A stretch of 64,000 nt of DNA from an uncultured Pseudomonadales bacterium (GCA_964583625.1 CAZOVA010000001.1:76465-140464); one strand, 5' to 3'. Shown: positions 1 through 45,004, counted from the stretch's first letter. The notes: generated by a model not told the origin, from the letters alone. Numbers and translations are program-made.

Positions 1-2
1 AG

Positions 3-176
3 CAATTAAGCGGGCATTGGAAGATAAAAGATCCTAAAATGAGGGACTTAAACCAAGAGTGTCAAAAAATTCTTTCAACTCTCAACTTTTCCATAAACTT
101 TCACCACATTCCTAGAGAAGAGAATGCTCTTGCTGACGAACTAGTAAATTTAACTCTAGATCAGCAAGAAAAATAA
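3..176 (+). CDS. 3' end of an RNase H-like gene (partial, 5' end outside the window)
   Basis: Frame 3 translation ...HIPREENALADELVNLTLDQQEK* ends with TAA at 174-176. The REENxxADxLAN-like C-terminus is typical of RNase HI-family proteins, recalled from memory. Confidence 0.4.
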   Translation, partial: QLSGHWKIKDPKMRDLNQECQKILSTLNFSINFHHIPREENALADELVNLTLDQQEK

Positions 177-204
177 TTATTATTGCATAATTAGCGCATT
201 ATTC

Positions 205-3204: not shown

Positions 3205-3237
3205 ACTAACCACAAAGATTCTTTAGTAGCTGGTCGT

Positions 3238-3248
3238 TATGGTATAAT
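3238..3248 (+). promoter_or_regulatory. extended -10 promoter element TATGGTATAAT upstream of the bL25 gene
   Basis: TGnTATAAT motif about 30 nt upstream of the ATG at 3279. The identical 11-mer recurs upstream of secY and the S10 operon. Confidence 0.4.
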
Positions 3249-3278
3249 AACCCTTCTTGAAAAAGAAAAGAAAGTTTT

Positions 3279-3941
3279 ATGACAGAAAAATATAAGCTCA
3301 AAGTCAAAAGAAGAGACACTCAAGTTAAGGGAAAAAAATATCAAAATGAAGGTTTTATCTTGGGAAACATTTTTGGTCTAGGAAAAAGTCAAGCGATTGC
3401 TCTTCCAGCTAAAGAAACAAGAAAACTTTTTCACGAGATTGGTGAATCCAGTGTTATTTATCTTACTTTAGATGAGGATAAAAAAGAAATTCCTGTCTTA
3501 TTAGATGAAACTCAGGCAGACCCCCTCAATGGTTCTTTAATTCATATTGCTTTAAAGAAAGTAGACCTGAAGGAAAAAGTCGAAGCCGCTGTTGCCTTTG
3601 AAGTCATTGGGGAATTTTCTGTTCCAGAAGCCCTTTATTTATTATTAAAACAAGAAGTAGAAGTGGAAGCTCTACCCACAGATTTGCCAGAATCTTTTAT
3701 TCTAGATGTAAGCAAATTTACCAAGATTGGTGAGCAGATAACTTTTGCCGATCTTGAATACGATCGAGAGAAAGTCACTCTTTTAGTTGAAGATCAAGAT
3801 GAGCCAGTCATTATTGTTTCTGAGGTCAAAGAAGAGATTGAGGAAGAGCCGGTAGTCGAAGAAGCTGCTCCAGCAGAAGGAGAAGCTGAGACGGTCGCCC
3901 AAGAAGAAACTGAGGAATCACCAACCGCAGAACAAAAATAA
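3279..3941 (+). CDS. rplY: 50S ribosomal protein bL25 / general stress protein Ctc form
   Basis: N-terminal L25 fold signature (KLKVKRRDTQVKGKK...ILGNIFG...ALP) plus Ctc-type C-terminal domain and acidic tail. Confidence 0.7.
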   Translation: MTEKYKLKVKRRDTQVKGKKYQNEGFILGNIFGLGKSQAIALPAKETRKLFHEIGESSVIYLTLDEDKKEIPVLLDETQADPLNGSLIHIALKKVDLKEKVEAAVAFEVIGEFSVPEALYLLLKQEVEVEALPTDLPESFILDVSKFTKIGEQITFADLEYDREKVTLLVEDQDEPVIIVSEVKEEIEEEPVVEEAAPAEGEAETVAQEETEESPTAEQK

Positions 3942-3947
3942 CTATTT

Positions 3948-4607
3948 TTAGTTGAAGAAAATTTCGTTGGGGTCCATTTTTTTAGCCTCATTCAGCCAGA
4001 AGTGATAGTTTTGCCAATCATTGAGATAAAAATGAGCTAGAGCAAGATTAACTTTCTCCGCTTGACTAAAATTCTCTGCAAAAAAAGACTCTGTTTTAGT
4101 GTAAAGGTTTTGAGTACGCCAATAACTCTCTGGTCTTTTAACCAAGGTTCTTGTCTGAGCGTTTATTTCTGTTGGCAAAGCTAATATTTCCACTTTCCGC
4201 TCAACTTTTAAATCGACTGTTTCTTTTTCTATCGACCGCGTTCTAATATTGACCAGTAAAAGAGGTAATTGAGCTAAAATCAAAAAAACAAGCGCTAGAA
4301 AAACCCAAGCTTCATTTCCTTGTGAAAAAAAACTAATTTTTTTAGGCCAAAAACTTGGTTTTTTGGCTTTCTTATGAGTTTGTTGGTATTTTATTAAAAC
4401 CAAGTTTTTGGGGCTTTTTAAGGTTTTCTTGAGCCATTTCTTTTTTAACCAAACTGACCATAAGAAAAAATAAATTAAGTCGCCAAAAATTAATAACCCC
4501 AAATTTAGAAAAACGAAAGGTAAGAAAAATCTTCGCCAAGTCTTTTTTACCTTAGTCTCTTGCCGGAAAATTTGTTGGCCAATTTTCGGTTGCCAATATA
4601 GTTTCAT
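3948..4607 (-). CDS. hypothetical membrane protein (219 aa)
   Basis: ORF with 2-3 hydrophobic helices. The 5' end overlaps the valS 3' end by about 56 nt, so the true start is uncertain. Confidence 0.4.
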   Translation of the reverse strand: MKLYWQPKIGQQIFRQETKVKKTWRRFFLPFVFLNLGLLIFGDLIYFFLWSVWLKKKWLKKTLKSPKNLVLIKYQQTHKKAKKPSFWPKKISFFSQGNEAWVFLALVFLILAQLPLLLVNIRTRSIEKETVDLKVERKVEILALPTEINAQTRTLVKRPESYWRTQNLYTKTESFFAENFSQAEKVNLALAHFYLNDWQNYHFWLNEAKKMDPNEIFFN

Positions 4608-6840
4608 GATTTTCTATTTTAGCAAATTCTTGCCAAATTTGCTCAGTCACGTAAGGAATAAAAGGGTGGAGTAATTTAAGAAAAACTAGTAAGCCCTCTT
4701 TTAGTGATGAGTATGATAGCTGACCGTTCTTATTTTTTTCAATTGCTTGATCACAAAAGAAGTGCCAAAACTGGTCGTATAAATAATCAGCGGCCAAACC
4801 AATTTTGTAATCTTGAAGCATTTTAGTACCAGTTTTAATTATTTCTTGCATTTTTACTGCAAAAGCCAGATTTTCTTTTTCCAATGACTCTTTTGTTTTT
4901 TCTTTAGTCTTTTTATCTGAAATAAGAATAAAGCGGGCAGCGTTCCAGACCTTATTGGTAAAATTTCTTGCCGCCTTAAAATCGCCCTCACTGATAGATT
5001 TATCTAGACCAGCGCTAGACCTGATTAGAAGAGCCATTCTTAAGGCATCAGCTCCATACTTTTCTACAATCTCCAAAGGATCGATCACATTTCCTTTGGA
5101 CTTGCTCATCTTTTGGCCCTTTTGGTCTCTTACCAGTCCATGAAGATAAATCCGAGAGAAGGGGAGACTGCCAGTTTCAAAAAAGCCAATCATCAGCATT
5201 CTCATCACCCAAAAAGGAAGAATGTCATAACCTGTCTCTAAAATACTATTAGGGTAAAACTTTTCAAAGTCTCCAGGTTGAGTGTTTTTCAAAGTAGCAA
5301 AAGGCCACTGACTAGAGGAAAACCAAGTATCAAAGGTGTCCGTCTCTTGGATGCATTCATCTTCATTGAGATGAGTTTTTTCAGTTTTGATAATAAATTT
5401 AGCCTCAATTGGGGCTTTAAGAGTTTGTAAACCAGACTTAATCAATCCAGGCTGATAGTCTTTTAAAATTTCTCCCAATTTGCCCTTAATTAAAAACCCA
5501 CCATTAGCTAAAGGTTTTAAATCATAATTACCGCTTTTCTCAGGAGAAGCTTTTTTTATAAGAGAAATAATATCAATATTAGGATTATCTTTAATACGAT
5601 AAAAAATTGGTATTCTGATCCCCCAGACTATTTGTCGAGAGATATTCCAATCTCTTAAATTAGTTAGCCAGTGTCGAAGAATTTTGTCATATCCTGGCCC
5701 GTCAATTTTAATTTTTCCTTCATCTAGTCTTTTTAAGATGGGCCTCACTAGGGGAGCGACTTTAATAAAAAATTGAGTTAAGGGGAGAGGTTCTAATACT
5801 CCGCTGCAACGATAGCAACAAGCTATTTGAGTTTCGTAATCATAGTCAATTTTCTCTATTAAGCCTAATTTGTCCAATCTATCCACTATTTTTTCACGAG
5901 CTACGGCCACTTTTTGTCCTGCAAACTCTCCAGCGAGCTCTGTCATTTTGCCGTCAAAACCAATCACTTGTTTGGGACCAGGAATGGCCTCTTTATGTCT
6001 TTTCCAGACCTCAAAATCATTATGGTCGTGAGCGGGAGTGATTTTTACTACTCCTGTCCCAAATTTGGGGTCAACATATTCATCAGCTATCACTTTGATT
6101 TTAAACAAACCATTGACGCCAAGAGCCTCGATTTCTTGATTAATATATTTTTGGTAGCGTTTATCTTGAGGATGAACCGCCACAGCTGTGTCTCCAAATT
6201 TAGTTTCTGGTCTGGTAGTGGCTAAAACGAAAGGACCGTATTTTAAATAATAAAGTGGAACTTTTTTTGTTAGATGTTTTGCCTCTAAATCAGAAAAAGC
6301 TGTCCCACATTTAGGGCAATAATTAACTAGCTTTAAATCGCGATACACCAATTCTTTTTCCGCTAAATGACAAAAAGTTTTTTCCACTGTTTTAACAATA
6401 TCTTGATCTAAAGTAAATTTTTTCCTGGACCAATCCAAAGAAAAACCAAGTTTTTTTAGTTGTGTTTGAGCAATAGTGGTGTTTTCTTGGACATAGTCCC
6501 AAATCAATTGAAAAAGCGTCTGACGATCAAACTGAAAGCGCGACTGACCTTGTTTTTGCAGTTTTTTTTCAAAAACGAACTGAGTTTCAATTCCCGCATG
6601 ATCAAAACCCGGCAGCCAAAGAGTGTCTTCTCCTAGAAGACGGTGAAAGCGAATAAGCACATCTTCAATTGCATACATGGCGTGGCCAATATGAAGGGGG
6701 TCATTAGCATTAGGAGGAGGCAAAACAATACAATAAGATTTTTTATTTGAGATTTTAGCTTCAGGAGTAAAAGCTTTTTTTCCTTCCCAAAAAGCAGTAA
6801 TTTTATCTTCGTATTGTTGATGTTGATATTTTGAGTCCAT
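4552..6840 (-). CDS. valS: valine--tRNA ligase (class I aaRS), short CPR-type form lacking the C-terminal coiled coil
   Basis: PPPNANDPLHIGHA (HIGH motif), LWLPGFDHAGIETQ and KMSKSKGNVIDP (KMSKS motif). Overall ValRS-like order of motifs. Confidence 0.9.
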   Translation of the reverse strand: MDSKYQHQQYEDKITAFWEGKKAFTPEAKISNKKSYCIVLPPPNANDPLHIGHAMYAIEDVLIRFHRLLGEDTLWLPGFDHAGIETQFVFEKKLQKQGQSRFQFDRQTLFQLIWDYVQENTTIAQTQLKKLGFSLDWSRKKFTLDQDIVKTVEKTFCHLAEKELVYRDLKLVNYCPKCGTAFSDLEAKHLTKKVPLYYLKYGPFVLATTRPETKFGDTAVAVHPQDKRYQKYINQEIEALGVNGLFKIKVIADEYVDPKFGTGVVKITPAHDHNDFEVWKRHKEAIPGPKQVIGFDGKMTELAGEFAGQKVAVAREKIVDRLDKLGLIEKIDYDYETQIACCYRCSGVLEPLPLTQFFIKVAPLVRPILKRLDEGKIKIDGPGYDKILRHWLTNLRDWNISRQIVWGIRIPIFYRIKDNPNIDIISLIKKASPEKSGNYDLKPLANGGFLIKGKLGEILKDYQPGLIKSGLQTLKAPIEAKFIIKTEKTHLNEDECIQETDTFDTWFSSSQWPFATLKNTQPGDFEKFYPNSILETGYDILPFWVMRMLMIGFFETGSLPFSRIYLHGLVRDQKGQKMSKSKGNVIDPLEIVEKYGADALRMALLIRSSAGLDKSISEGDFKAARNFTNKVWNAARFILISDKKTKEKTKESLEKENLAFAVKMQEIIKTGTKMLQDYKIGLAADYLYDQFWHFFCDQAIEKNKNGQLSYSSLKEGLLVFLKLLHPFIPYVTEQIWQEFAKIENHETILATENWPTNFPARD

Positions 6841-6902
6841 TGTTTTTATATTATAGCAGAGCTTTTATAAGAGATTCTCATTTTTTCTTGTTCTGTCAAA
6901 AT

Positions 6903-6932
6903 TTGACAAGCATTTTTTATTTATGCTATACT
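6903..6932 (+). promoter_or_regulatory. sigma70-like promoter (TTGACA-18-TATACT) for the Pro-rich gene, overlapping a 7-bp inverted repeat TGTCAAA-A-TTTGACA
   Basis: Direct reading of the divergent valS/Pro-rich intergenic region. Confidence 0.35.
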
Positions 6933-6967
6933 TAACAAATCACCGGCTAGCTAGAGGAAAAATTAAA

Positions 6968-7585
6968 ATGAATGATAAAATTAACTCCCTTTTGGAGCAA
7001 CTTAAAACAGAGGTAAAAAACTATATTGAGGAGGAGGTCTCCCGTCGGAGTGGAGAAGAAGTAACCGCCAACGACTCTCAACCAGAAAAAGAGCTTCCCG
7101 TCTCTGAAGTCAGTATTCCTCCTATGCCGGAGCCAACTCGATTAGAGAATAATCCAGTGACCGAGCAGACGGAAAAATTTCCTCTTGAGGGGCAAGAAAG
7201 TACTCAGCCATTTGTGTCTGAACCTCCCGTTCCCATGCCAAATTTTTCTGATTTGAGCAATCTGCCTGATTTACCAGGAATAACTCCAGTTGAGGAAAAT
7301 ATCGACAAATCAGACACTCTTAGCCCCCTTCAAACAACTGATCCTATCAATCCTGTTGATCCAGCTACTGATCAGACTGCAACCTCTCCAGAATTCAATA
7401 ATCCTCAGCCGGACTTTAATACCCCAGTATCAGATTTGCCAGAACCTCAGTTCCAGACGCCAGTGACCCAAGAAAATGGAGAACTAAACAATCAAAACTC
7501 TGTTCCTCAAGTGAGTCAAGAAAATCAAGGGTTTCCAGTAGCTAGAGGTCTTTTAGGTAAAGTTTTAAATAAAAAAAATCAATAA
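6968..7585 (+). CDS. hypothetical protein with N-terminal coiled-coil and long Pro/Gln/Thr-rich disordered region
   Basis: ORF 6923..7585, but AGAGGAAA lies 9 nt upstream of the ATG at 6968. Low-complexity P-rich C-terminal two thirds. Confidence 0.6.
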   Translation: MNDKINSLLEQLKTEVKNYIEEEVSRRSGEEVTANDSQPEKELPVSEVSIPPMPEPTRLENNPVTEQTEKFPLEGQESTQPFVSEPPVPMPNFSDLSNLPDLPGITPVEENIDKSDTLSPLQTTDPINPVDPATDQTATSPEFNNPQPDFNTPVSDLPEPQFQTPVTQENGELNNQNSVPQVSQENQGFPVARGLLGKVLNKKNQ

Positions 7586-7632
7586 ATAGCTTGTTTTTTG
7601 CTTTATCTTATGTCATAATCTTCTTATAGATT

Positions 7633-8310
7633 ATGAATGATGTTATTTTTCAAAAAAGCAATAGTTCAAACTCATCTGTTGTAGAAGAGAAAGTGCCAGT
7701 TTTAGATCAAAAATCATCTGCTCAATTAGTGAGCAAATATGGTATAGATATGATTTCTGAAGCGGAGAATTTAGCTGAGGCAGCTTATATTTCTTGGTTA
7801 GAAGCAATGATTGCTTATGAAGAACGGGACTGGCAAAAATCACTAGATATCTTTAATTTGTGCAATTTCTGGGATAAGAACTGGGTTTATGAGGGAATGA
7901 TGGGGATTACTTTATCTTTATTAGACAAATATGATTTAGCTATTAATTACCTAAGCTCAGCCATAAAAATGCAAAAAGGCAATCCTCTCTTATATCCAGA
8001 ACTACAAGCAAATATGGATCAAAAGCAAATCTTTTACGATTTAGTCAAATATCTAACTTTATCTTTGTTTGTTTCAGGGCAATATGAATTAGCCAATCAA
8101 TGGTTGGACTATTTTTCTAAGGAATTCTCTCCAGACCCCATGTTTCAAATACAAATAGCAGGTTTTCTTTCTGAATTAGGAAATTATAATGGTGCTACCT
8201 CTCTTATCCGTCAAGCTTTGCCAAAACTGGAGACGGAAGTTTCTTTTGAACAAAAAACACACTTTTTAAACCTAAGTAAGGAAATCTTAGAAAGTATTAA
8301 AAACAATTAG
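7633..8310 (+). CDS. hypothetical protein, TPR-like helical repeats
   Basis: Repeating A/Y/W/L spacing (AEAAYISWLEAMIAYEERDWQKSLDIF...) suggestive of tetratricopeptide repeats. Confidence 0.55.
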   Translation: MNDVIFQKSNSSNSSVVEEKVPVLDQKSSAQLVSKYGIDMISEAENLAEAAYISWLEAMIAYEERDWQKSLDIFNLCNFWDKNWVYEGMMGITLSLLDKYDLAINYLSSAIKMQKGNPLLYPELQANMDQKQIFYDLVKYLTLSLFVSGQYELANQWLDYFSKEFSPDPMFQIQIAGFLSELGNYNGATSLIRQALPKLETEVSFEQKTHFLNLSKEILESIKNN

Positions 8311-8363
8311 CCTCACATGATATAATAAGATGGCTTTGTTATACTTGTGAAAGAATAAATTTT

Positions 8364-11300
8364 ATGAACGAATTTTCTCCTTACAAATTTGACTCAGAAA
8401 AACTTGATAAACTCTCAAGAGCTTCAACTGAAGACAAGCAGGAGCAAAAGGACAAGCTTCGTTCTGAGTATATATTAAGGATTTTCTCCAAACAGGCCAG
8501 CAGCGAATATGCCTTTCAAGACGAAACTTTTACTCTGAGGCAAATTCGAGGAGAAATCCGTTCGTTGAGTGGTCAAAAGGATACCAAAGAAAAACTTCAA
8601 AAAATAAATGAGTTGGTAAAAAAAATTCAAACCAAAATTGATAGTATGGATGTTCTTATTAATACTGAAAAATTAGATATTCAAGATTCTACAGAGCTAG
8701 ATCCCTCTATGCAAGAACTGGAGAAAGATGATCCTGATTGGAAAAAAAACTATTCTAAAAAAGTTTCCCCTTTGGTAGAAGAGCAAATGGCTTGGAGATA
8801 TTTATTAGAAGAAATTGATAAAATAAAAACGAGAGACAAACCCACTGAAGAGAGAGAAGGAGAAGATGAAGCTAGTGAGGAAAGTAGGTCTAGATCGAGA
8901 GAAGAAACGAGGAGAGAAGAGGGAGTTGACTTTTCCGAGGTAGAAAGAAAAGCTTTGGCGTTTCTTGAGAATCAAGACGAAAAAAACAAAGACTTAGATA
9001 TAGAGGATGCCAAAATTGTAGAGCTAATAAAAGAGCTTAGAAAAGAAATTCCTAAACAAGAATTAATTCTTGAAACTAGAAAAAAACAATATGAAAGAGC
9101 ATCAGAAGGTAAAGATAAGAGCAAGAGTGAGATAAGAGAGGCTTTGGATGCATTTGTCGAGGAAAAAGAAAGACTGCGTCTTTTTGTTGAAACTGTCGCT
9201 AAATATGAAAGACTAAAACAACAAAAAGAAGGGAGGATTACCCCAGCTGATAAAAAGAATTATGTAGAAGAAATAGACTTTGAAAGTAGAGGGTACAATG
9301 GCTTAGAGCTTAAAGAAAAAATTGTAAATGAGTGTTTAGAGCAAGGGGAAAATAAGTTAAGAAATTTAACTAGTATTATTTATTTAGTTAAAAAATTAAA
9401 CTCAGAAAACTTAGTCTCAGGAACTGAGGACTTGATAAAGATTCTTGAAGATTTGAGCGAAAGAGAAGAAAATAAGGGCAAGCTTGCCGATTATTTAGAT
9501 AGTCAAGAACCGGAAGGACTATTTGAAAAAACAGGCAGTGCGATAAAAAATCTTGAACTTGGTCCGAAGATCACAGTGAACGTTGATTATCCTGAAGGAC
9601 TAGACGATGAGGAAAAAAATCGGTATAAAACAGCGGCAAGAAATAACATCAGCGAAGAATACAGAGATTTAATAAAAGACACCGTTTATTCTTGTCTTGC
9701 AAAAATGATCGTCGATTTAGAGATTTCTTTTGAGGGAGCAGACATGATTAGCTCAAAAGCAAGAGAGTTTGATAACAAATTTCTTACAATTGATCAGATT
9801 CTAGGAGTGATGAACTCTTATAAGGGCTTTTTTGAAGTAACAGACACTTCAAATATGGCTATTACTAAAGTTCTAGAAAAAAGAAAAGAACAGCTTTTGC
9901 AGAGCATGGAAGCAAGGGGGGTAGACAAAGATTTTATAGCGGGCTTTATGAGTCAAATTGACAATATTAAAGATGCTCTAGATTTTGGTTTTTTAAGAAA
10001 TGATGTTCTCAACTACCGTTATTTAGGTGCCAGGTGGACCAAAGATGCTGAAGGAAACAGAATTCCACAGGTGGTGGAAAGAATGTCTTCAGTTATTAGT
10101 ATTGGTAAAAAAGGCATCGATGCTCAAAGAGTTAATACCAACATTAATGGCGAACAACAAACAATGAAAATAGGGGAGTATTTTGATAACCGTTTGGAGT
10201 GGTCAGATGAAATGGGCATCTTACAACAAATACTATGTGTAGTGAAGCAAGAATTAATGAAACAACCGATAGGAAGTGGTCTAAGATCTAAAAACGGAGC
10301 TGATGAAAGCAAGTACTCTATGGCCAACCTTTTTAATTCTCAGGAAAAAGTTAATGACCTAATTGGAGATGTGATTGAAGGAAGAGTACAGTATACGTTT
10401 TTTAACGGAGAACCAATTAAATGCAAAAATAAAGAAGGAAGATTTGAGGAGATAAATATTGCCAAAACCATCAAAGAGATGAACTTAGGCTCAGAAGAGA
10501 AAGCTATCCTAATGCAAATGGCGATGATGTTAGCATCGGCTCGTGACTTTGGTGGCGATGCTACCAGCTATCATATGGCTTATAACCTTACAGCCAGTAA
10601 ACTTCCTCCAGAGGCTACCGATCCTCGAACTTTTGATAAGCCTGCAGCTGGTATTTATTATGAAAGTAGAAATAATCAAGAGAAAATTCCTTCCTGCTTT
10701 TTTGTTTTAACTAATTTAGAAGCTGGCTCTCTCTTTAACAGAGAAGACGCTGACTCTCCAGGATTTATCGAAAAATATGAAATCGCTGCTAAGGCAACAA
10801 CCGCCTGGGCCCGCTTGATGGCAGAATTTCCTCAATTGCAGAACATACAGTTCCTTGAGGGGACTAGAAGTGATAACAAAGAAGCGAATACTGATGAGCG
10901 CTATGTTCTAAAACCAGCAGAGCTATCTCCTGAAGATAATGAGGGAAGACAAACATATAAAGATTACTGTGTTTGTCATAGCTTCGATGGCAGAGTTCTT
11001 CCTTCAATTGGGCATTTCGTTTCTCAAAGAGAAAGAAAGCTTGAACAAAAAACTGGTGATGAGAAAAAACAAATTGACGCTTCCACTTATCCCCCAGACG
11101 CTTATCTTAAGTTATTTGCTGCTCATCAAAGACTTTTCGAAAGAGGGGATTTGGCCACTAACTTGGAAGAAGTAAAGAGAAAGTTCTTTACTCCAGAGGG
11201 AGAAATAAAACATGATGACATTGTTCAAGAGATATCAAGCTGTAATACAGACATTGCCATATTAATGTCTTATTTAGGTCCTTGGAAAGAAAAAACCAAG

Positions 11301-11903
11301 CTTTGTCTTTCTTCTGATGTATTAGGAGAAATTAAAGGAACAGAAGCTTTGAAAAATTTTTCAGTTGATGATTCTGACATGAGCAGGTTTCATGAGGCAC
11401 ACAAAGCTGCCTATATGACTTTTGTAATGGCTTTGCGACTCTCTGTTCCTGGGGAAATTGATTATATTAAAAATCGTCTTATGAGTGGTGAGGCTTCTCG
11501 AAATCTTCTAAATAATAGAAGATATAAAATGAAAATTATCGCTATGAGAGAAGCGATTCTCCAGGGAGTCAATGATCCTGATAGAAAAGGAGGGTTGAAA
11601 GAAGAGTTTCGTCGTCACCTAATTGATGGAATGAAAGTAGATCTGAGAACTAGGGGAGGCTATGATCGAATGTTTGTTGGAGCAGTCAAATTTAATGATT
11701 GGTTAATTGAATTAGCCAATAGTAACAAGGAGTACCTGCGACCAGTCTCTAAAATTTTACCAGGATATCTAGAAGTGAGAGAGGGAGGGAAATTGGTTAG
11801 ATTAGAGGTTCCCAAAGAAGGCTGGATGAGGCGCAAATGGTTTCAGGAGGACCGTCTCAGAATGCCCTCAAGTCCTTTTTTAAGAAGAGTCCCAGAAAAA
11901 TAA
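8364..11903 (+). CDS. giant acidic, K/E-rich cytoplasmic hypothetical protein (1179 aa); no TM, no signal peptide, no Walker motifs seen
   Basis: Single uninterrupted ORF with coiled-coil-like N-terminal third. Confidence 0.7.
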   Translation: MNEFSPYKFDSEKLDKLSRASTEDKQEQKDKLRSEYILRIFSKQASSEYAFQDETFTLRQIRGEIRSLSGQKDTKEKLQKINELVKKIQTKIDSMDVLINTEKLDIQDSTELDPSMQELEKDDPDWKKNYSKKVSPLVEEQMAWRYLLEEIDKIKTRDKPTEEREGEDEASEESRSRSREETRREEGVDFSEVERKALAFLENQDEKNKDLDIEDAKIVELIKELRKEIPKQELILETRKKQYERASEGKDKSKSEIREALDAFVEEKERLRLFVETVAKYERLKQQKEGRITPADKKNYVEEIDFESRGYNGLELKEKIVNECLEQGENKLRNLTSIIYLVKKLNSENLVSGTEDLIKILEDLSEREENKGKLADYLDSQEPEGLFEKTGSAIKNLELGPKITVNVDYPEGLDDEEKNRYKTAARNNISEEYRDLIKDTVYSCLAKMIVDLEISFEGADMISSKAREFDNKFLTIDQILGVMNSYKGFFEVTDTSNMAITKVLEKRKEQLLQSMEARGVDKDFIAGFMSQIDNIKDALDFGFLRNDVLNYRYLGARWTKDAEGNRIPQVVERMSSVISIGKKGIDAQRVNTNINGEQQTMKIGEYFDNRLEWSDEMGILQQILCVVKQELMKQPIGSGLRSKNGADESKYSMANLFNSQEKVNDLIGDVIEGRVQYTFFNGEPIKCKNKEGRFEEINIAKTIKEMNLGSEEKAILMQMAMMLASARDFGGDATSYHMAYNLTASKLPPEATDPRTFDKPAAGIYYESRNNQEKIPSCFFVLTNLEAGSLFNREDADSPGFIEKYEIAAKATTAWARLMAEFPQLQNIQFLEGTRSDNKEANTDERYVLKPAELSPEDNEGRQTYKDYCVCHSFDGRVLPSIGHFVSQRERKLEQKTGDEKKQIDASTYPPDAYLKLFAAHQRLFERGDLATNLEEVKRKFFTPEGEIKHDDIVQEISSCNTDIAILMSYLGPWKEKTKLCLSSDVLGEIKGTEALKNFSVDDSDMSRFHEAHKAAYMTFVMALRLSVPGEIDYIKNRLMSGEASRNLLNNRRYKMKIIAMREAILQGVNDPDRKGGLKEEFRRHLIDGMKVDLRTRGGYDRMFVGAVKFNDWLIELANSNKEYLRPVSKILPGYLEVREGGKLVRLEVPKEGWMRRKWFQEDRLRMPSSPFLRRVPEK

Positions 11904-12008
11904 TATCAGCGACTATCTATTTTTTAGTATGAAGCTTTAGTTTTAGAGTTTATCAGAAAGCACCCTATTTTTCTGTAAGTTTTGCAGAAAATCGAGGATT
12001 TTTAAATA

Positions 12009-14087
12009 TTACTTTTCTGCCAAATCATCACTTGGGAGTTTTGTTCTTGCTGGATTGTTCGCTTCCTCTCCCGCTTTAGCTCCATCAAATGAGCCAGTAG
12101 CCCCGTCAGCGGTAAAGCTTTTCTTTTTAAACAAGTAGCTTGGATATTTAGCCCCATTATCGAGCCAACTCTTAAAGCTTTTGTTTTCATTCAACCATTT
12201 GTCTACTTCTCCTGTGTCTCTTCTCGCACTAGTTAAATGATCCTTTAATTTTTCAGCCCTTTGGACAATTTTTTTATATTTATCTATATGCCATTTTGAA
12301 GGTTCCACAGAGGGTTTAAAAACCGATTTTGCCACATTGATAAAATTTCCAGAGCCGAGATCTCTTCCTATTACTGAATATTTTATAGTGCTTGATCTGC
12401 CTTTTCTATAAGCACTTTTTCCATAATCTATTAATCCTCTACGAAAACTAGCATCTGGATCTATTCCCATTCCTTTTCGGAAAGCACCTCGGGACCCTTC
12501 ATAGGAGTCTCTTATACTTAAACCAGATCTCTTTAGGTCTGAAAAACTTTTAGCCTTTTCTTTTATTCCTGAACCAAGAGGCCTTAATAGCCCTCCGCCA
12601 ACTGCTCCAGCTGTACCAACCGCTATTGAGGCCCCCAGAGGAGCTTGTTTTCTGAAGTTTTGCCCAGCTGCAGTGGCAATTTCACCAAAGAAGCCCTCGT
12701 TGCCACCGCCCAATTTTTTCTTGATATTATTAACAATCTCTGGCATAGCCAATAAAATGCCCAAAGAGACAATTGTTCCCACCGAGCCAGTTACTTTATC
12801 TCCAGAATAATCTCCATTATTAAAAATCAAATAGGGGGCTAAAAACCCTCTAGGTCTTTCACTCTCTTGAGCAATAGCTCTTCCTAGTGGAGCTTCACTG
12901 ACAGTTTGAGCTTGAAAAAAATTATTGACGGTGGAATTAATTACCAACATAAAAAAAGTAATTACAAAAGGAGACAGATTGGCAATAATAGACATAATCC
13001 ACCTTTGAAAACTCTTACTTCCAGGGATAGCAGTCAACATGAGACTAAAGGGGGCAAAAATAATATTCATGATGACTATAGCATATGATCTCAAGAGTAA
13101 AAACAAAAGACGAAAGAGATTAACAGCAATGGCGATAATAATAATTGCCGTCGCTAGAACACCAGTAAGAGTTGAAAGCACACCTTTAAAGATGCCCACT
13201 ATACCACCTATACTTGCAAATAAGCCTTCAGATATAGTATTAACAGATCCAAAGACATTTCCTAAATCTCCAATCAACACCATGTTCATGACCGTACCGA
13301 AATTACCATTAACCAAACTATTAGCACTAGTATTGCCACTGAAATTTAAAAAAGTGGTGAAGGCATACATGATCCAATACATTAAATCGATTAAGAAGCC
13401 AGCAATCGCATAAGAGAAGGTGACAGCAATTAAAGCTAAGACAATTCTTGGCAGCGCTTGTTGAGCCGTGACCGCTGCTTGCCCACCAATTTTTTGACGG
13501 AAAAGAATCATAAAACTGATAGCGATAATCACAACTGTAAAGAAAATGTAGGCAATATTGCGGAACATTCGCCAGAGTTGCAAATAAGGAGTAAGAGAAT
13601 AATAGCCAAAACCCTGGGCATAAGCAGGTGAAATAACACCTAGATTTTTGAGCGATTCAGCCACAAAATAAGTTCCGCTGGCTGGGGGTTGATAAGTCCA
13701 AGCAAAAATTTTCCCCATTTGACCCATTAAACCACCAGTATTAGTGGTCCCGCCACCAACGGTGGCTGAGGGAGTCCCGATTAGTAGGCCAGTATAGCCT
13801 AAAACTTGAGAAGTCTGCATGGAAGAGGTAAAACAGTCTAGATTGGCGACATTACATTTAGCTCCCTCGAAAAAATCTAGAGTTCTTGTCTCAGACTCCA
13901 CATATTCAGTATTGAGTTGAGTAATTTTAACTTGAGAAGGGCTAGCAAGACTAGGATCGGAGATAGTAATAACCTGATTGTCGTTTTGGGCAAAAATTCT
14001 TCCCCCAATAAGAACTATTACAGCTAAACCAACCAAAATAAAGGAAACATTAGTAACCAATCGCCCCAATTTTTTCGGCATCTTCAT
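12009..14087 (-). CDS. polytopic membrane protein (692 aa) with signal peptide, about 6-7 TM helices and a Gly-rich hydrophilic C-terminal tail; VirB6/TrbL-like topology (tentative)
   Basis: N-terminal signal (LVGLAVIVLIGG), a cluster of TM helices at residues about 180-400, Gly-rich stretches (GGGTTNTGG, GTAGAVGGGLL). Assignment rests on topology resemblance only. Confidence 0.6.
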   Translation of the reverse strand: MKMPKKLGRLVTNVSFILVGLAVIVLIGGRIFAQNDNQVITISDPSLASPSQVKITQLNTEYVESETRTLDFFEGAKCNVANLDCFTSSMQTSQVLGYTGLLIGTPSATVGGGTTNTGGLMGQMGKIFAWTYQPPASGTYFVAESLKNLGVISPAYAQGFGYYSLTPYLQLWRMFRNIAYIFFTVVIIAISFMILFRQKIGGQAAVTAQQALPRIVLALIAVTFSYAIAGFLIDLMYWIMYAFTTFLNFSGNTSANSLVNGNFGTVMNMVLIGDLGNVFGSVNTISEGLFASIGGIVGIFKGVLSTLTGVLATAIIIIAIAVNLFRLLFLLLRSYAIVIMNIIFAPFSLMLTAIPGSKSFQRWIMSIIANLSPFVITFFMLVINSTVNNFFQAQTVSEAPLGRAIAQESERPRGFLAPYLIFNNGDYSGDKVTGSVGTIVSLGILLAMPEIVNNIKKKLGGGNEGFFGEIATAAGQNFRKQAPLGASIAVGTAGAVGGGLLRPLGSGIKEKAKSFSDLKRSGLSIRDSYEGSRGAFRKGMGIDPDASFRRGLIDYGKSAYRKGRSSTIKYSVIGRDLGSGNFINVAKSVFKPSVEPSKWHIDKYKKIVQRAEKLKDHLTSARRDTGEVDKWLNENKSFKSWLDNGAKYPSYLFKKKSFTADGATGSFDGAKAGEEANNPARTKLPSDDLAEK

Positions 14088-14144
14088 AAACTGTTAGTCA
14101 TTATAGCGCAACTTCTATTTTCATGCAAGACTATTTTACTGTTA

Positions 14145-15245
14145 TTATTCCAAAAAATCTTGTAACTTTTTTCTACGGCTAGGATTACGCAAATTTCTCA
14201 ATGCTTTGCTTTCAATTTGGCGAATTCTTTCTCTGGTGACGCCAAACTCTTTCCCCACCTCTTCCAAAGTCATCATTCGACTATTGGATAAACCAAATCT
14301 CATCCGCAACACTTTTGCCTCGCGATCATTAAGGCCCTCAAGGATATCTTCAATATTTTCAGCTAACATTTGTCGGCTAGCACTATCATAAGGGGTAGCC
14401 ATGCGATTGTCGGCCACAAAATCGCCCAAAACGCTATCTTCTTCACCGTCATCGCCCACGGGAGATTCTAAAGAAACGGTATTTTGCGAGATTTTATAAA
14501 TTTCTCTTACTCTATCTGGGGTAAGGTTCATTTCTCTAGCAATCTCATCAATTGTGGGCTCGCGCCCCAATTCTTGCATAATCTTGCGACTGGTACGCAT
14601 AAGAGCATTAATGGTTTCAACCATATGAACGGGGACGCGGATAGTTCTCGCTTGGTCAGCAATTGAGCGAGTGATAGCTTGTCTAATCCACCAAGTAGCA
14701 TAAGTAGAAAACTTAAAACCCTTAGTCCAATCATACTTATCGACTGCTCGAATCAAACCCTTATTGCCTTCTTGAATTAAGTCTAAGAAACTCATTCCTC
14801 GACCAATATACTTTTTTGCAATCGCTACCACTAGCCTTAAATTGGCATTGATTATTTTTTGTTTAGCTCTCTCGCTTCCTTTTTCTACCTGCTGAGCCAG
14901 ACGGATTTCCTCTTCACGAGAAAGAAGAGAGACTCGACCAATTTCTTTTAAATACATCCTGACCGGATCAGAAACAGTGCTATTATTAAAATTGGCAATA
15001 GTTTCCAATTCGCTTTTGAGCAAATCGGCTGTTTCTTGTCCACATTCTTCTTTGGCTACAGACTCGCAAATGGTGATACTAGCTCTTTCCGCTCGATCAT
15101 AAAAACTATCCAAAGCTTCAATATACAGTTCTGGCTCAATGAAGGTCTGTAGAATATCTTCTTGAGAAATATTACCGTTTTCTCGACCTTTGGCGAAGAG
15201 TTTTTCGATGTCGACAGCTAGAGCTTTGGGAAGTTTTTTACTCAT
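14145..15245 (-). CDS. rpoD: RNA polymerase primary sigma factor (sigma-70 family)
   Basis: Region 1.2/2 ([26 protein letters not shown]), region 2.4 ([28 protein letters not shown]), region 4 ([29 protein letters not shown]). Confidence 0.9.
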
Positions 15246-15334
15246 ATTATAAAGATGCGATATTATAACATAAGATAGAGTCTTTTTATGCTACAATAAA
15301 TCTGAAAAATCAAATCAAAATTAGAAAAACCTTC

Positions 15335-16465
15335 ATGTCTTACAAAGTAGCTTTAGTCCATGATTTTTTGGCAGAATATGGTGGGGCGGAAAGAGTAGTG
15401 GAAGCGCTGCATCAGCTTTTTCCCAAAGCTCCCCTTTATGTCGCTTTTGCTGACCTAAGTTCTTTTGGCAGTCAGCGGAAAAATTTTTCCAAAATGGACA
15501 TTCGTTTTACTTGGCTACAATATATTCCCTTCGTTAGTCGCTGGCGCTCACCTTTGCGTCTTTTAGCACCAGGCGCTTTCGCCAAATTAAACTTATCAAC
15601 TTATGATGTAGTGGTTTCTTCCAGCAATGCCTACCACGCCAAGTCCGTTAAAGTCCCCAAAGGAATTCATTTATGTTATTGTCACACTCCGCCACGATCA
15701 CTTTATGGCTTTGACGCCTCTAGTAATTGGCAAAAAAACCCCTTAGTTAAATTGGGTGGACAGTTAATAAATCATTTTTTAAGACAAAAAGATTTTCTCG
15801 CCGCACAAAAAATTGATCAGATTATAGTTAACTCGCAAACAGTGGCTCAGAGAGTTAAAAAATACTGGCGACGGGAGAGTGTAGTCATTTATCCGCCCGT
15901 AGCTTTGGTGGAAAAGGCTCCTAAAATCTCTCCCTTAAAAAAAAGAAATTACTATCTTTTTGTCAATCGCTTAAATTATGCGAAACATCCAGAAATCGCC
16001 ATTCAAGCTTGTTTAGATTTACATCTGCCTTTAAAAATAGTTGGAGTTGGTCCCTTAAGGTCTAGTTTGGAGCAGCTCAGTCAAAAAGATCGGACCTCTC
16101 AGATTGAATTTTTGGGAGGAGTAGGGGATGAAGAACTAGTCAAGCTTTATAGTGGAGCTAAAGCGGTACTTTATCCAGTTATCGACGAGGATTTTGGCAT
16201 TGTCCCGATTGAGGCCATGGCTTTTGGCACCCCAGTTATTGCTCATCGTTCTGGTGGACCAACGGAAACTATTATTGAAAATAAAACTGGAGTCTTTTTT
16301 GATGATTTAAAAGTAGCCAGTCTTAAAGAGGCGATACAAAGAGCTGAGCAAATAAGTTTTGACTTCCAAACCCTCCATCGCCAAGCTTTAAAATTTAGCC
16401 AAAAAAACTTTCAGGATAAAATTCTCAATTTAGTGGAAAAAACAATTGCCAATAAACGAAAATAA
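15335..16465 (+). CDS. glycosyltransferase family 4 (GT-B, GT1/GT4 clan)
   Basis: MSYKVALVHDFLAEYGGAERVVEAL N-terminus and C-terminal EDFGIVPIEAMAFGTPVIA motif (EX7E-like). Confidence 0.8.
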   Translation: MSYKVALVHDFLAEYGGAERVVEALHQLFPKAPLYVAFADLSSFGSQRKNFSKMDIRFTWLQYIPFVSRWRSPLRLLAPGAFAKLNLSTYDVVVSSSNAYHAKSVKVPKGIHLCYCHTPPRSLYGFDASSNWQKNPLVKLGGQLINHFLRQKDFLAAQKIDQIIVNSQTVAQRVKKYWRRESVVIYPPVALVEKAPKISPLKKRNYYLFVNRLNYAKHPEIAIQACLDLHLPLKIVGVGPLRSSLEQLSQKDRTSQIEFLGGVGDEELVKLYSGAKAVLYPVIDEDFGIVPIEAMAFGTPVIAHRSGGPTETIIENKTGVFFDDLKVASLKEAIQRAEQISFDFQTLHRQALKFSQKNFQDKILNLVEKTIANKRK

Positions 16466-38000: not shown

Positions 38001-38362
38001 CGTAAAAAACAGAGAGTGAGAAAATAGTAGACGCCGATTCCACCTGTCACATAACAGATGAAAAAGAAAAGATAGCGATTAAGATTATTAGGAAATATTT
38101 GTAAAAGCCAAACTATTGGCAGTCTGACGATTTCCGCCAAGTGAGCTTGAGAAGCAGGAGCACCTAAACCCTGATGCGGTTGCCAAGCCCCCCAAAAAGT
38201 CCTTTGAAAGTATTGCGTTAAATTAAGTTCTGGCTGAAGAGTATCCCAACCGCTCAAAGTGGTTCCTGGTTTGATATTAATAATAGTGACCCAAAGAGCT
38301 ACTAAAACAATCGTTAGTAAAGGAAGATAAAGTTTAATTTTGGACCACCAAGAAGAGATCAT
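35033..38362 (-). CDS. large integral membrane protein (1109 aa): N-terminal roughly 450-aa polytopic domain plus large extracytoplasmic C-terminal domain; GT-C/Emb/YfhO-like architecture (tentative)
   Basis: At least 10 predicted TM helices followed by a long beta-rich soluble region. 4-nt overlap with the upstream GT-C gene. Confidence 0.5.
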   Translation of the reverse strand: MISSWWSKIKLYLPLLTIVLVALWVTIINIKPGTTLSGWDTLQPELNLTQYFQRTFWGAWQPHQGLGAPASQAHLAEIVRLPIVWLLQIFPNNLNRYLFFFICYVTGGIGVYYFLTLCFLRQTKFTTWPAAAAAVFYLLNLITLQQFYVPLEMFAVHFATLPWVFLTLQKAVERGRLQEYFWFFVVLTLAAPAAHTATLFYMYLPFVFLYTFFLLWAKRGGWRKKIKAILILIFLVLAANSYWLLPNFYYSIFHSHYVSKAKISQNFSPEAFWNNQAYGWLPQVLTGKNFLFNWKDLDWQKGEFVPLFDEWNSYYQKTHLFFLQYVFVIIAFAGIYKSWKKQTWQTLALLAVFLGSLFFLINLNFPLKWLYQLIRSLPLLKEAIRFPFTKFSIIYLFALVVFFANGLVFIQELLTKKWETKRTITTTVNLLAITLLLLAHLPALTGHLMSDKMKVTFPKQYDELYSFLTFLNQEQVVVKLPMLSYSGWTYHDWQTSGYQGAGWLWFGLPQALLDREFDRWVNTNETVYRQLNLALNQENESLFSQVLQQYNLSLFLLDESAFINEGKGAQYQEIKDFLSASGGQLIWQKDFLSLYQFYPEAALFKAADKYSLVNNKNIIAGQRDFLYENSGDYLLSKTADLTYPFAFLTTEQNEDLVRWHDQTVVLKGEKITQENMTLTLPALADNETYITPVRLSFEGGNLLLDYPRTYINNGKQKIEIPQLQNMEIDISSVGAERVMVEFNQEVVFLAQGESKVAVFQFLPNKNQKITVVDDRKINAQERTEKISYIINYQNAFSYTFTPNYLEPLKKTTSLVLEEANKNLELVIDRSFEQAVDLKQKMEIGNCSQEGEVENLNAKNEAKLWLRAEKMGNACLTIRAENFNNGSDYLLRMKGQNLAGRSWKMAVIQDSNGQRFLETLLPEGDFDITYNLMSQNKKNYQELFFNFETNSFGQKSENTLTELIFIPVNIQRLGKIYAQQRNLAKVSSVAQIGAYHKNNSASYELTFAGQSENNLLVFHQSYDPLWRAKFINQETGEKIVKKPQVFNGWANAWTVDRGQWLVKIYYWPQIWAYGGMILWLGTLAGFGYLFWQDRKKEKRNLRQIVRTLFG

Positions 38363-44414: not shown

Positions 44415-44473
44415 TGCAAGACATAACTTGCAAAAGTTACATTAGTTATTAATTGAAAGAAAGGTTTCTTTAT

Positions 44474-44893: not shown

Positions 44894-44926
44894 TTTGCTA
44901 ATTTTTAAAATATAAAAATTCTCAAA

Positions 44927-44951: not shown

Positions 44952-45004
44952 GTTTGACAAAGAGCCTCTTGTTTGATACACTCATCCTCATGAACTTTAA
45001 ATTT

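Follow-up and report, generated by a model that had tools for sequence, protein, structure and literature searches.

The question raised by this locus is whether a 692-aa membrane protein and three genes that converge on it belong to a T4SS, and what the largest of the three products, an acidic protein of 1179 aa (the giant), does beside it. The genes lie in a 64,000-nt stretch of DNA from an uncultured bacterium (the window). The initial annotation of the window regarded them as a possible secretion module.

Organisation of the locus and its small genes

The ORF map of the window agrees with that given in the initial annotation, with three genes on the plus strand followed by the 692-aa ORF on the minus strand (Table 1). 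The 1179-aa and 692-aa genes are tail-to-tail and separated by a gap of 105 bp. The promoter-like site upstream of the three genes was the best one found by a promoter scan of positions 6700–15400, and 36 nt separate its end at 6932 from the ATG at 6968. The longest ORF form of the 205-aa gene begins at 6923; the start at 6968 is supported because the promoter is near-consensus and the orthologs start with MNDKI... at the equivalent position. The hairpin in the convergent gap is possibly a weak bidirectional terminator, and was missed by a terminator scan that is GC-biased. On the other side of the 692-aa gene (hereafter also the VirB6-like gene, see below), the adjacency to rpoD is repeated in six loci of the window's sub-lineage. 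The other genes around the VirB6-like gene in this genome are housekeeping genes (ValRS, RpoD, L25).

Table 1. Coordinates of features in the window (positions counted from its first nucleotide).
Feature	Position	Strand	Remarks
Sigma-70-type promoter-like site	6903..6932	+	TTGACA, 18-nt spacer, TG-extended TATACT; 11/12 matches; upstream of three-gene operon
205-aa acidic Pro-rich protein	6968..7585	+	Orthologs at same position in L001 and L012 (BLAST E 3e-11)
225-aa TPR-like helical-repeat protein	7633..8310	+	Small family; in the window's sub-lineage its gene immediately precedes that of the giant
1179-aa acidic soluble giant, mostly alpha-helical	8364..11903	+	Represents the hypervariable partner that faces the VirB6-like gene tail-to-tail
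Giant N-terminal module, ~aa 1–190	8364..8933	+	Common to giants P0124, P0125 and P0126, which have unrelated bodies
Giant C-terminal region, aa 877–1179	10992..11900	+	Weak collinear profile similarity to main giant family
AT-rich 10-bp hairpin with flanking T and A runs	11969..11991	.	Inside the 105-bp convergent gap
692-aa divergent 'extended VirB6'-class polytopic membrane protein (probable)	12009..14087	-	Fold, synteny, architecture
Gly-rich basic hydrophilic tail, aa 461–692 (232 aa)	12012..12707	-	12.9% Gly, net +16; predicted cytoplasmic
Seven-helix membrane core, aa 166–460	12708..13592	-	Invariant AP..LM..A.PG...F..W motif; part matching TrwI/VirB6 and DotA
Extracytoplasmic domain, aa 34–165 (~130 aa)	13593..13988	-	Cys78 and Cys85; conserved PPAS..YVAD and PAYAQG motifs
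Signal peptide or N-terminal anchor, aa 1–33	13989..14087	-	Hydrophobic segment at 10–28; predicted cleavage after A33
rpoD (primary sigma-70)	14145..15245	-	57 bp upstream of the VirB6-like gene, co-directional; context, not claimed as T4SS part
Four VirB2-like T4SS pilin genes	44453-44893, 44954-45448, 45477-45956, 46021-46533	+	PF18895

The 205-aa protein is probably disordered, as had been proposed earlier; it contains 14% Pro, has a net charge of -22 and lacks a hydrophobic segment. It gave no family match in Pfam or NCBIfam. Conservation is seen in a helix at the N-terminus (MNDKI..L..LK.E..Y..EV), in the motif V.PPMPxPT and, at the C-terminus, in GF..A(R/K)GLL..VL.K.

The 225-aa protein, first described as a TPR protein, is better termed TPR-like. 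Its matches to the TPR HMMs (TPR_2, TPR_12 and TPR_1) are all below the gathering score, the best being TPR_2 with 19 bits vs 27, and a match to LcrH_SycD is weak (E 0.021). An HMM built from the homologs in L001, L012, L013 and L014 finds the protein with E 3.5e-10, and the profile of this five-member family matched only TPR/PPR solenoids in the PDB, including a designer PPR protein (1.5e-14), BBS4 (6.9e-6), CTPR3Y3 (2wqh; 0.0062) and CTPR3 (1na0; 0.016). Both the TPR-like and the Pro-rich genes are restricted to a small sub-lineage.

The 692-aa membrane protein and the T4SS genes of the genome

The layout attributed to the 692-aa protein in the initial annotation, i.e. a signal, a periplasmic domain, six or seven TM segments and a Gly-rich tail, was recovered as a signal-like segment, an ectodomain, seven hydrophobic segments (within residues 178–452; 7–10 across family members) and a basic Gly-rich tail. 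Comparison of 48 homologs indicated that the signal is probably cleaved after the nearly invariant A33, which is kept in at least 90% of them; W363 is present in 48 of 48. The tail varies in sequence and length across the family (28–385 aa, median 159) and is net-basic in all 77 members (medians +9 and 15.7% Gly). The AF2 model is well predicted in the helical core (pLDDT 75–94) and has low pLDDT in the extracytoplasmic domain, with a mean of only 66 overall.

Sequence searches did not place the protein in a known family. The PF04610 HMM (gathering score 25.9 bits), proposed as a check when the VirB6/TrbL resemblance was first pointed out, gave no match at E <= 1 to the protein or to any of the 48 family members, and the same HMM matched all seven VirB6/TrbL proteins used as a control (best E 8e-50). 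A sequence search against PDB chains likewise gave no match. In hhalign, the 48-sequence family was aligned with the seven VirB6/TrbL proteins, a shallow reference from Proteobacteria only, over 79 columns with E 0.016 and a probability of 2.9%. In this alignment the best-conserved motifs of the two families coincide, W363 lying opposite W197 of Agrobacterium VirB6, and the short conserved motif that ends in this invariant Trp lines up with VirB6 GP..F..T[RQ]..W.

A Foldseek search with the AF2 model gave TrwI/VirB6 as all of the top 8 among 350,542 PDB chains (best E 0.011, probability 1.00, target TM-score 0.47). By two independent structure-search methods, T4SS chains of the VirB6 class rank highest in the whole PDB. 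The fold scores are modest, and chance matches can occur for all-helical membrane folds. The protein has the membrane core of at least five helices that the VirB6/TrbL family requires. Its architecture is that of an 'extended VirB6', defined by at least five hydrophobic helices and at least one large central or C-proximal hydrophilic domain (PMC12857230); DotA is classed as a counterpart of VirB6 (PMC12857230).

The 692-aa family is present in 527 species genomes, some of them recorded as Pacebacteria or Woesebacteria. Its neighbours in 77 loci include VirB2-like pilin arrays (64 loci), a 296-aa protein (66) and a 979-aa protein (62). In sampled loci the gene lies ~10 kb from PrgI, TrsD and VirB4. 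PrgI-like and M23-peptidase genes occur downstream of it, the PrgI-like neighbour cluster being found in 15 loci, and a single sampled locus, on the JGI contig with P0062, shows the order PrgI-like - TraC-like - VirB4. No other TrbL/VirB6-annotated polytopic protein was found in the sampled clusters, and hydropathy counts over the conserved neighbour families revealed no other that is comparably polytopic. The earlier assignment to VirB6/TrbL is thus upheld by gene neighbourhood and not by PF04610.

An unrelated permease or envelope-biogenesis protein located near pilin genes, e.g. a pilin-specific insertase or transporter, would also be consistent with the failure of PF04610, the hhalign value of only 0.016, the modest fold scores and the position of the gene between rpoD and non-T4SS genes in this genome. 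However, transporter and insertase families were equally unmatched in Pfam and NCBIfam scans, and such a protein would be expected neither to retrieve VirB6-class chains at the top of the PDB by two methods nor to align its most conserved motif with that of VirB6. It would also leave the clusters with no VirB6 candidate, and this explanation is considered very unlikely. The 692-aa protein is likely a VirB6-class subunit that is too diverged for detection by Pfam and NCBIfam sequence models. Few VirB6 proteins have been reported from Microgenomatia, 'suggesting extreme sequence divergence' (PMC12102498).

The initial annotation had further noted a pilin-like array at 44 kb and speculated on a fragmented T4SS. 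The four genes of the array (44453-46533) are PF18895 (T4SS_pilin) paralogs, all with 32–47.7 bits against a cut-off of 26.6 (E 1.7e-12 to 1.3e-7), and each product has a signal and two TM segments. An HMM made from pilins encoded beside the VirB6-like gene in other genomes finds all four at 1e-28 to 1e-35. Most relatives have the array immediately beside the VirB6-like gene; in this genome it is displaced, and ~30 kb separate the two.

A VirB4 ATPase is encoded in the same genome (L091:2596-4665; NF045971, CD1110 family, 376.3 bits, E 2.9e-112) with a score above the curated whole-protein cut-off of 325 bits, and it also matches Pfam P-loop_TraG, DUF87 and AAA_10. L091 was assigned to the genome of the window on the strength of identical proteins encoded in both. 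The gene adjoins dnaA, ~5 kb before the start of the window on the same contig; hence a lack of T4SS ATPases, named in advance as an argument against the idea, was not observed. A location of virB4 near dnaA has been reported (PMC12102498). Because VirB4 beside dnaA and the four PF18895 pilins occur in one genome, the idea of a fragmented T4SS holds. Since the PrgI-like, TrsD-like and VirB4 genes beside dnaA (~17 kb from the VirB6-like gene), the VirB6-like gene itself and the 44-kb pilins are separate, the T4SS of this lineage is divided into at least three chromosomal pieces.

The 692-aa protein would thus be the VirB6-class membrane subunit of a Patescibacteria-type (MPF-FATA-like) T4SS. 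Following removal of its Sec signal, the ectodomain would face outward, likely with a Cys78-Cys85 disulfide, and the basic tail would extend into the cytoplasm. The seven helices would form the membrane core and may provide the base or protochannel for assembly of the VirB2-like pilins, by analogy with the TrwI and DotA pentamers. The PrgI/VirB3-like, TrsD-like and VirB4 proteins encoded near dnaA would be the energising and anchoring parts.

Variability of the convergent giant

The giant is K/E-rich with a net charge of -27. Neither a TM-like segment nor a Walker A motif was found in it, which agrees with its earlier description as lacking TM and nucleotide-binding motifs, and no toxin or enzymatic domain was detected. 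A search of 1.84 billion representative proteins yielded only five relatives. With a pLDDT of 48, the AF2 model of the giant is unusable, and the Foldseek matches are insignificant and mostly to HEAT/ARM solenoids.

Similarity of the giant to P0124, P0125 and P0126 (E 2e-20 to 2e-29) is confined to aa 1–193. The body of P0126 resembles the L001 giant (1e-96), and that of P0124 the L016 giant (2e-44). Judged from these alignments, the giants are mosaics, with N-terminal modules swapped between unrelated bodies. The C-terminal region of the window giant is weakly similar to other giants in hhalign, with E 3.2e-4 vs the L001-type group and 6.2e-4 vs 25 main-family giants, and in a collinear BLAST alignment with E 0.012. 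The best-conserved part of the giants in general is the C-terminal half.

Downstream of the VirB6-like gene, 59 of 62 loci have a convergent ORF of 600 aa or more with a soluble acidic product. The length class is consistent across loci (~1100 aa), every giant is acidic, and a TM-like segment is absent from 58 of 64. Among pairs of loci with 40–50% identity of the VirB6-like protein, only 8% of the giants are alignable, as compared with 81% for the 979-aa partner and 100% for the 296-aa partner. The giant is more variable than even the cluster's pilins and its surface-exposed 979-aa protein. The 1179-aa protein represents, in this genome, a partner whose position is fixed and whose sequence is almost wholly replaced among relatives.

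Such a pattern might be produced if the 692-aa protein is VirB6-class and the three convergent genes are its unrelated neighbours, in a variable hotspot of fast-evolving orphans having no role in secretion. The giants do split into many BLAST clusters, that of the window is almost without relatives, the genes by their orientation are not co-transcribed with the VirB6-like gene, and the rest of the neighbourhood is housekeeping. However, genes of varied size, number and type would be expected at a hotspot, instead of one class of ORF in the same orientation at nearly every locus. Moreover, 46 giants are connected by phmmer, with residual similarity collinear within the C-terminal half. The pairing of VirB6-like gene and giant also outlasted the rearrangement that separated the VirB6-like gene from the pilins in the window's sub-lineage. 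A hotspot is thus very unlikely. The three genes, which would form one operon transcribed from the promoter at 6903-6932 and encode soluble acidic proteins dedicated to the channel, are probably tied functionally to the T4SS.

Relationship to known systems and possible roles of the giant

The Patescibacteria T4SS is known from earlier publications: Wang et al. 2023 (PMC10633639) described that of Southlakia epibionticum (SEML1_0006-0019), and Quinonero-Coronel et al. 2025 (PMC12102498) carried out a survey. The Southlakia VirB6 is essential and was itself recognised only by structure. The present system resembles these in having an MPF-FATA-type VirB4, TrsD-like and PrgI proteins, VirB2-like pilin arrays and a VirB6 seen only by structure, and in an origin-proximal location beside dnaA and dnaN. 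It differs from that of Southlakia in the dispersal of its genes over several chromosomal sites and in a VirB6-like family (580–790 aa) that is distinct from, and shorter than, the Southlakia VirB6, a protein of 1088 aa to which an ARM-repeat domain is fused. Neither paper mentions a giant of the present kind, encoded separately in convergent orientation and hypervariable. Both this divergent VirB6 family and the giant paired with it appear to be undescribed.

Like VirB6/TrbL (TrwI of R388, PDB 7o3v and 8rt9; A. tumefaciens VirB6) and DotA of the Legionella Dot/Icm system (type IVB), the 692-aa protein is a polytopic helical inner-membrane protein. Its topology is predicted to be N-out, C-in, as in TrwI and DotA, which are its best structural matches in the PDB. 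Genes for VirB2-like pilins, PrgI (VirB3-like) and VirB4 accompany the family, as they do VirB6/TrbL proteins. Unlike these, the protein gives no HMM match and is about twice as long, including the signal peptide, Cys-containing ectodomain and basic Gly-rich tail, and its host is a monoderm with no VirB5, VirB7, VirB9 or VirB10 context.

No T4SS cargo is known in this phylum, which either lacks the relaxase and coupling protein or can dispense with them. In the explanation preferred here, the giant would be recruited to the channel on its cytoplasmic side, where it would meet the basic tail, and the TPR-like protein would be an adaptor or chaperone. The giant would act as a dedicated cargo or host-interaction factor, the fast turnover of which tracks host specificity. 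In favour of this are the fixed position and hypervariability of the giants, their mosaic N-terminal modules, the basic tail in every member of the VirB6-like family, the TPR-like gene just before that of the giant, and a net charge of +5 over the final 30 residues of the giant in the window. Taken as a whole, i.e. a VirB6-class channel subunit, a dedicated operon and a giant with this role, the explanation is tentative and falls just short of an even chance. The gene order is comparable, by analogy only, with chaperone-effector pairs (the TPR class II T3SS chaperones SycD/LcrH), in that a helical-repeat gene precedes that of a large, signal-less, fast-evolving protein beside a channel gene. 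The ~190-aa N-terminal module common to unrelated bodies recalls, again by analogy, polymorphic effectors such as the LXG toxins of T7SS with their small helical targeting partners. No homology to those families was found, however, the C-terminal half is the conserved one in most giants, the small partner genes are limited to a sub-lineage, and export of the giant is putative.

Alternatively, beside a VirB6-class channel the giant may be a non-secreted cytoplasmic alpha-solenoid scaffold or gate docked on the tail. It would then be the split-gene equivalent of the ARM-repeat domains fused to Saccharimonadia VirB6 and SEML1_0011 proteins, and might organise VirB4 and TrsD or choose substrates where a coupling protein is lacking. 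Two essential Southlakia proteins have such repeats, SEML1_0013 (the 1088-aa VirB6 recognised by structure) in its C-terminal part, at 806-1085, and SEML1_0011 at 746-995. The giant is single-copy, nearly universal, of fixed position and consistent length, and mostly helical, with HEAT/ARM solenoids prevailing among its insignificant matches. Furthermore, an acidic giant faces a basic tail in all loci, and conservation lies in the C-terminal half. On the other hand, greater variability than that of the surface-exposed 979-aa protein and pilins is unusual for an internal machine part, and N-terminal modules are exchanged between unrelated bodies. No ARM or HEAT family homology was detected in the giants, and the likeness to Southlakia is by description, not sequence. 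A scaffold is thus somewhat unlikely. That the giant is cargo rather than scaffold is a choice made with less than even confidence.

The boldest form of the preferred explanation, in which the giant is the long-sought Patescibacteria T4SS cargo, translocated or tip-exposed, with the TPR-like protein as its chaperone and the basic tail as a receptor replacing the coupling protein, is doubtful. If it is true, sequence turnover and module swapping between close epibionts would be a means of setting host specificity or of countering the defences of the host.

Several observations count against cargo. One giant per genome, fixed and nearly universal, is more like a machine part, and the ARM-repeat domains fused to Southlakia VirB6 and SEML1_0011 favour a scaffold. 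Rapid divergence of helical repeat proteins does not require positive selection. Small partner genes are found only in the sub-lineage, and charge magnitudes of tail and giant are not correlated (rho -0.16, p 0.2). Across the giants, enrichment in positive charge at the C-terminus is weak, the final 30 residues being net positive in 51% of them vs a baseline of 32%.

Gene arrangement and the VirB6-like protein

The positions that the initial annotation gave for four genes, encoding a Pro-rich protein, a TPR-like protein, a 1179-aa protein (the giant) and a 692-aa VirB6-like protein, were confirmed by ORF analysis, as was the tail-to-tail arrangement of the last two. The composition and topology of the proteins also agreed with that description. 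The longest ORF of the first gene begins at 6923 and not at 6968; the latter start is supported by the promoter-like site at 6903-6932, which scores highest in this region, and by orthologs whose sequences start with MNDKI at the corresponding point. Pfam and NCBIfam models gave no significant match to any of the four proteins. The rpoD gene (primary sigma factor) lies 57 bp upstream of the VirB6-like gene and is co-directional with it, and this adjacency is the same in six loci of the window's sub-lineage (e.g. L001, L011 and L016, fetched from related genomes). The window species shows at least 99.97% identity across samples, which made microdiversity analysis uninformative.

Features of the window, in window coordinates
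Feature	Position	Strand	Length	Comment
978-aa orphan	268-3204	+	978 aa	between rnhA and L25 gene
Promoter-like site	6903-6932			TTGACA-18-TGnTATACT, 11/12 matches
Pro-rich protein gene	6968-7585	+	205 aa	
TPR-like protein gene	7633-8310	+	225 aa	
Giant gene	8364-11903	+	1179 aa	
AT-rich hairpin	11969-11991			within 105-bp gap between giant and VirB6-like genes
VirB6-like gene	12009-14087	-	692 aa	
rpoD	14145-15245	-		
Polytopic protein gene	35033-38362	-	1109 aa	8 TM segments
PMT-family glycosyltransferase gene	38359-39957	-		overlaps preceding gene by 4 bp
Pilin array	44453-46533			four ORFs
Third pilin	45477-45956			
Fourth pilin	46021-46533			
343-aa protein gene	47153-48184	-	343 aa	beside next gene
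475-aa protein gene	48204-49631	-	475 aa	secreted product

In the 692-aa protein, a signal-like segment (residues 10-28) is followed by an ectodomain containing Cys78 and Cys85. Seven hydrophobic segments lie between residues 178 and 452, and the tail contains 12.9% Gly and carries a net charge of +16. Nearly all family members share A33, and the tail is net-basic in 77/77 members. This is the architecture of an 'extended VirB6', defined by at least five hydrophobic helices and a large C-proximal hydrophilic domain (PMC12857230).

The comparison with PF04610 suggested in the initial annotation was negative, as the HMM matched 0/48 family members. No match was obtained between the profile of the 48-member alignment and PDB sequences, or by hhalign of this alignment against a single Agrobacterium VirB6. 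Against a profile of seven verified PF04610 proteins, a shallow reference drawn from Proteobacteria only, hhalign gave E 0.016 and a probability of 3%. This alignment pairs the most conserved motifs of the two families, AP..LM..A.PG...F..W, in which W363 is invariant (48/48), and GP[LIF]..F..T[RQ]..W. W197 of Agrobacterium VirB6, presumably functionally essential, was not counted as evidence here.

In the AF2 model of the 692-aa protein, the membrane core was predicted with pLDDT 75-94 (whole-model mean 66). When the model was compared by Foldseek with 350,542 PDB chains, ranks 1-8 were all R388 TrwI/VirB6, the best match having E 0.011 and probability 1.00, with modest fold scores. The predicted structure shows a VirB6-class fold. 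DotA is counted as a VirB6 counterpart in a 2025 nomenclature review (PMC12857230). By analogy with the TrwI and DotA pentamers, the seven-helix core would form the membrane base or protochannel below a VirB2-like pilus. The signal would be cleaved and the ectodomain would face outward, and the basic Gly-rich tail is predicted to lie in the cytoplasm.

T4SS genes in related genomes

The VirB6-like family comprises more than 335 clusters in a search of 5.8 billion proteins, with a Pfam annotation on none, and its members are encoded by 527 stretches in the species-representative genome collection. The record titles are often Pacebacteria, Woesebacteria or Patescibacteria, and no class rank for the relatives is given by NCBI taxonomy. 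Pacebacteria and Woesebacteria are Microgenomates (OP11), equivalent to GTDB class Microgenomatia, and the class-level taxonomy used here follows from the titles together with this assignment. The canonical gene cluster was derived from 77 loci carrying the family, in which ORFs were called by a simple longest-ORF heuristic and then clustered.

Canonical cluster of loci carrying the VirB6-like family, in order
Order	Gene or product	Occurrence	Comment
1	ECF sigma factor	some loci only	flanks the pilin array, instead of rpoD
2	Pilin array, ~150 aa each	277 genes in 64 loci	
3	~979-aa protein with N-terminal TM segment	62 loci	no family annotation
4	Soluble 296-aa protein	66 loci	divergent from VirB6-like gene; no family annotation
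5	VirB6-like gene		
6	Giant		convergent
7	Giant M23 peptidase	often	
8	PrgI-like protein		
9	TraC-like and VirB4 genes	seen in one locus with precomputed annotation	

The VirB6-like family is syntenic with T4SS genes across dozens of fetched genomes. Precomputed Pfam annotation was available for three sampled loci, and in these no other gene was annotated as TrbL/VirB6. By hydropathy counts, none of the other conserved neighbour families is polytopic to a comparable degree. In a 2025 survey, VirB6 was described as 'scarce' in Microgenomatia, 'suggesting extreme sequence divergence' (PMC12102498). The family, found in 527 species genomes, is plausibly the VirB6 subunit missing from that survey. 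OP11 is the former name of Microgenomatia (bioRxiv 10.64898/2026.06.21.733656).

Many MAGs with the CPR-type cluster, including L010, L011 and L017, are titled 'uncultured Pseudomonadales bacterium'. Other carriers are a 1.41-Mb contig titled 'Vitreimonas sp.' (L061) and the complete genome CP011212 titled 'candidate division TM6' (L064). These titles probably reflect mislabelled or mis-binned records.

T4SS genes in the window's own genome

No T4SS ATPase was found inside the window. Upstream of its first protein, on the same-organism contig (L091, positions 1-9909), there are genes for a PrgI-like protein (442 aa), a TrsD-like protein (233 aa) and VirB4 (689 aa; NF045971, 376 bits, cut-off 325). 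VirB4 directly abuts dnaA, and is followed in order by dnaA, dnaN, rpmH, yidC, khpA, rnhA and the window start. The VirB4 gene precedes the window start by ~5 kb and is ~17 kb away from the VirB6-like gene. As the window starts ~4 kb downstream of dnaA, it is origin-proximal.

The four ORFs of the 44-kb array are significant PF18895 pilins, and an HMM of the pilins that adjoin the VirB6-like gene in other genomes matched them at E 1e-28 to 1e-35, placing them in the same family. The genome thus carries VirB4, TrsD-like and PrgI-like genes together with pilins. The idea of a fragmented T4SS put forward in the initial annotation is borne out by these genes, with VirB4 upstream of the window in the published dnaA-side position, and the absence of T4SS ATPases from the genome, named there as an argument against a T4SS, does not hold. 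That Patescibacteria have a T4SS with pilin arrays and a place next to dnaA is already known. In this phylum virB4 adjoins dnaA and dnaN, and VirB2-like arrays are abundant in Microgenomatia (PMC12102498); the VirB4 beside dnaA and the pilin array of the window genome match this picture.

Partner HMMs detected no counterparts of the 296-aa and 979-aa partners in the window. The 978-aa orphan, which has no family match and falls in the length class of the 979-aa partner, was rejected as its counterpart, having no detectable similarity and no N-terminal TM segment. The 1109-aa polytopic protein, which includes a ~670-aa hydrophilic part and has no family match, was rejected as a paralog of the VirB6-like protein since it is unrelated to that family.

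The third and fourth pilins are 98.6% identical over 140 aa (36-68% in other pairs), a similarity in sequence that indicates a recent tandem duplication. The 475-aa secreted protein weakly matches NCBIfam CPR_Pam_pilin_C (Pam pilus system pilin subunit; E 8.8e-5, under the cut-off), and the 343-aa protein beside it weakly matches a WxL-interacting peptidoglycan-binding domain. The two genes may represent a second surface-filament locus next to the T4SS pilin array.

The giant and its upstream genes

The giant is K/E-rich with a net charge of -27, and has neither a hydrophobic segment nor a Walker A motif. In 1.84 billion representative proteins, exhaustive HMMER recovered no more than five relatives. 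Two of them have the body in common with it (42-46% identity, residues 199-1177) and different N-termini. The other three have only the N-terminal 150-190 residues in common, and two of these have bodies that match the L001 (1e-96) and L016 (2e-44) giants. A jackhmmer search from the window giant converged on the same five proteins. A word-indexed homolog search, with the single sequence or an alignment (A2), returned only the giant itself and overlooked its two full-length relatives. Because exhaustive HMMER did recover relatives, K/E-rich words probably saturate the candidate filter of the word index. No additional giants were recruited by a global HMM of 39 giants. An AF2 model from a six-sequence alignment was disregarded (pLDDT 48, pTM 0.30, best Foldseek PDB match E 0.34).

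Downstream of the VirB6-like gene, 59 of the 62 loci with enough sequence carry a giant of their own, a convergent ORF of 600 aa or more. The giants are net acidic in 64/64 cases and have no TM-like segment in 58/64. Among genome pairs with 40-50% VirB6-like identity, the 296-aa partner was alignable in 100%, the 979-aa partner in 81% and the giant in 8%; at a VirB6-like identity of at least 50%, only 18% of giant pairs were alignable. The VirB6-like gene has a fixed yet hypervariable soluble partner. Forty-six giants are connected by phmmer, with residual similarity mostly in the C-terminal half, and the C-terminal 250-300 residues of the window giant show weak, collinear similarity to that family in hhalign (E 3e-4 and 6e-4). 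From these links and the collinear similarity, the giants are concluded to be one family, fast-diverging, partly mosaic and tied to the VirB6-like gene. Neither a Microgenomatia VirB6-like family filling the reported gap nor its nearly universal hypervariable giant appears to have been described in the literature searched.

A partner that is nearly universal yet hypervariable shows the pattern expected of a host-facing molecule. In the one Patescibacterium tested genetically, epibiotic growth requires the T4SS; what the system carries is unknown (PMC10633639, PMC12857230). A tentative reading, placed slightly ahead of a scaffold role, is that the giant is a cargo or host-interaction factor of the T4SS. 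It would fit a variability exceeding even that of the cluster's surface-exposed parts, the swapping of modules between giants, the TPR-like gene upstream, the C-terminal net charge of +5 in the window giant, and a T4SS of unknown cargo that has no essential coupling protein or relaxase. A cytoplasmic solenoid scaffold is only slightly less likely; it would agree with the single copy and fixed position of the giant, and with the ARM-repeat domains fused to the essential VirB6 of Southlakia (1088 aa) and to SEML1_0011. The first cultured Microgenomatia strain, a host-specific ectoparasite, was reported in co-culture in a 2026 preprint, with tubular structures that are perhaps T4SS pili (bioRxiv 10.64898/2026.06.21.733656). 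Since such a co-culture now exists, the predictions of a channel subunit and of a giant acting as cargo or scaffold are directly testable.

Of 56 loci, 37 have a divergently oriented neighbour beside the giant, which therefore has no co-directional upstream partner there. The 225-aa protein has homologs encoded immediately before the giant in L001, L012, L013 and L014, and forms with them a small family (HMM E 3.5e-10) whose profile matched only TPR/PPR solenoids in the PDB. Like it, the 205-aa protein (14% Pro, net charge -22) is confined to the window's sub-lineage, and its orthologs in L001 and L012 have conserved ends and a variable, acidic middle.
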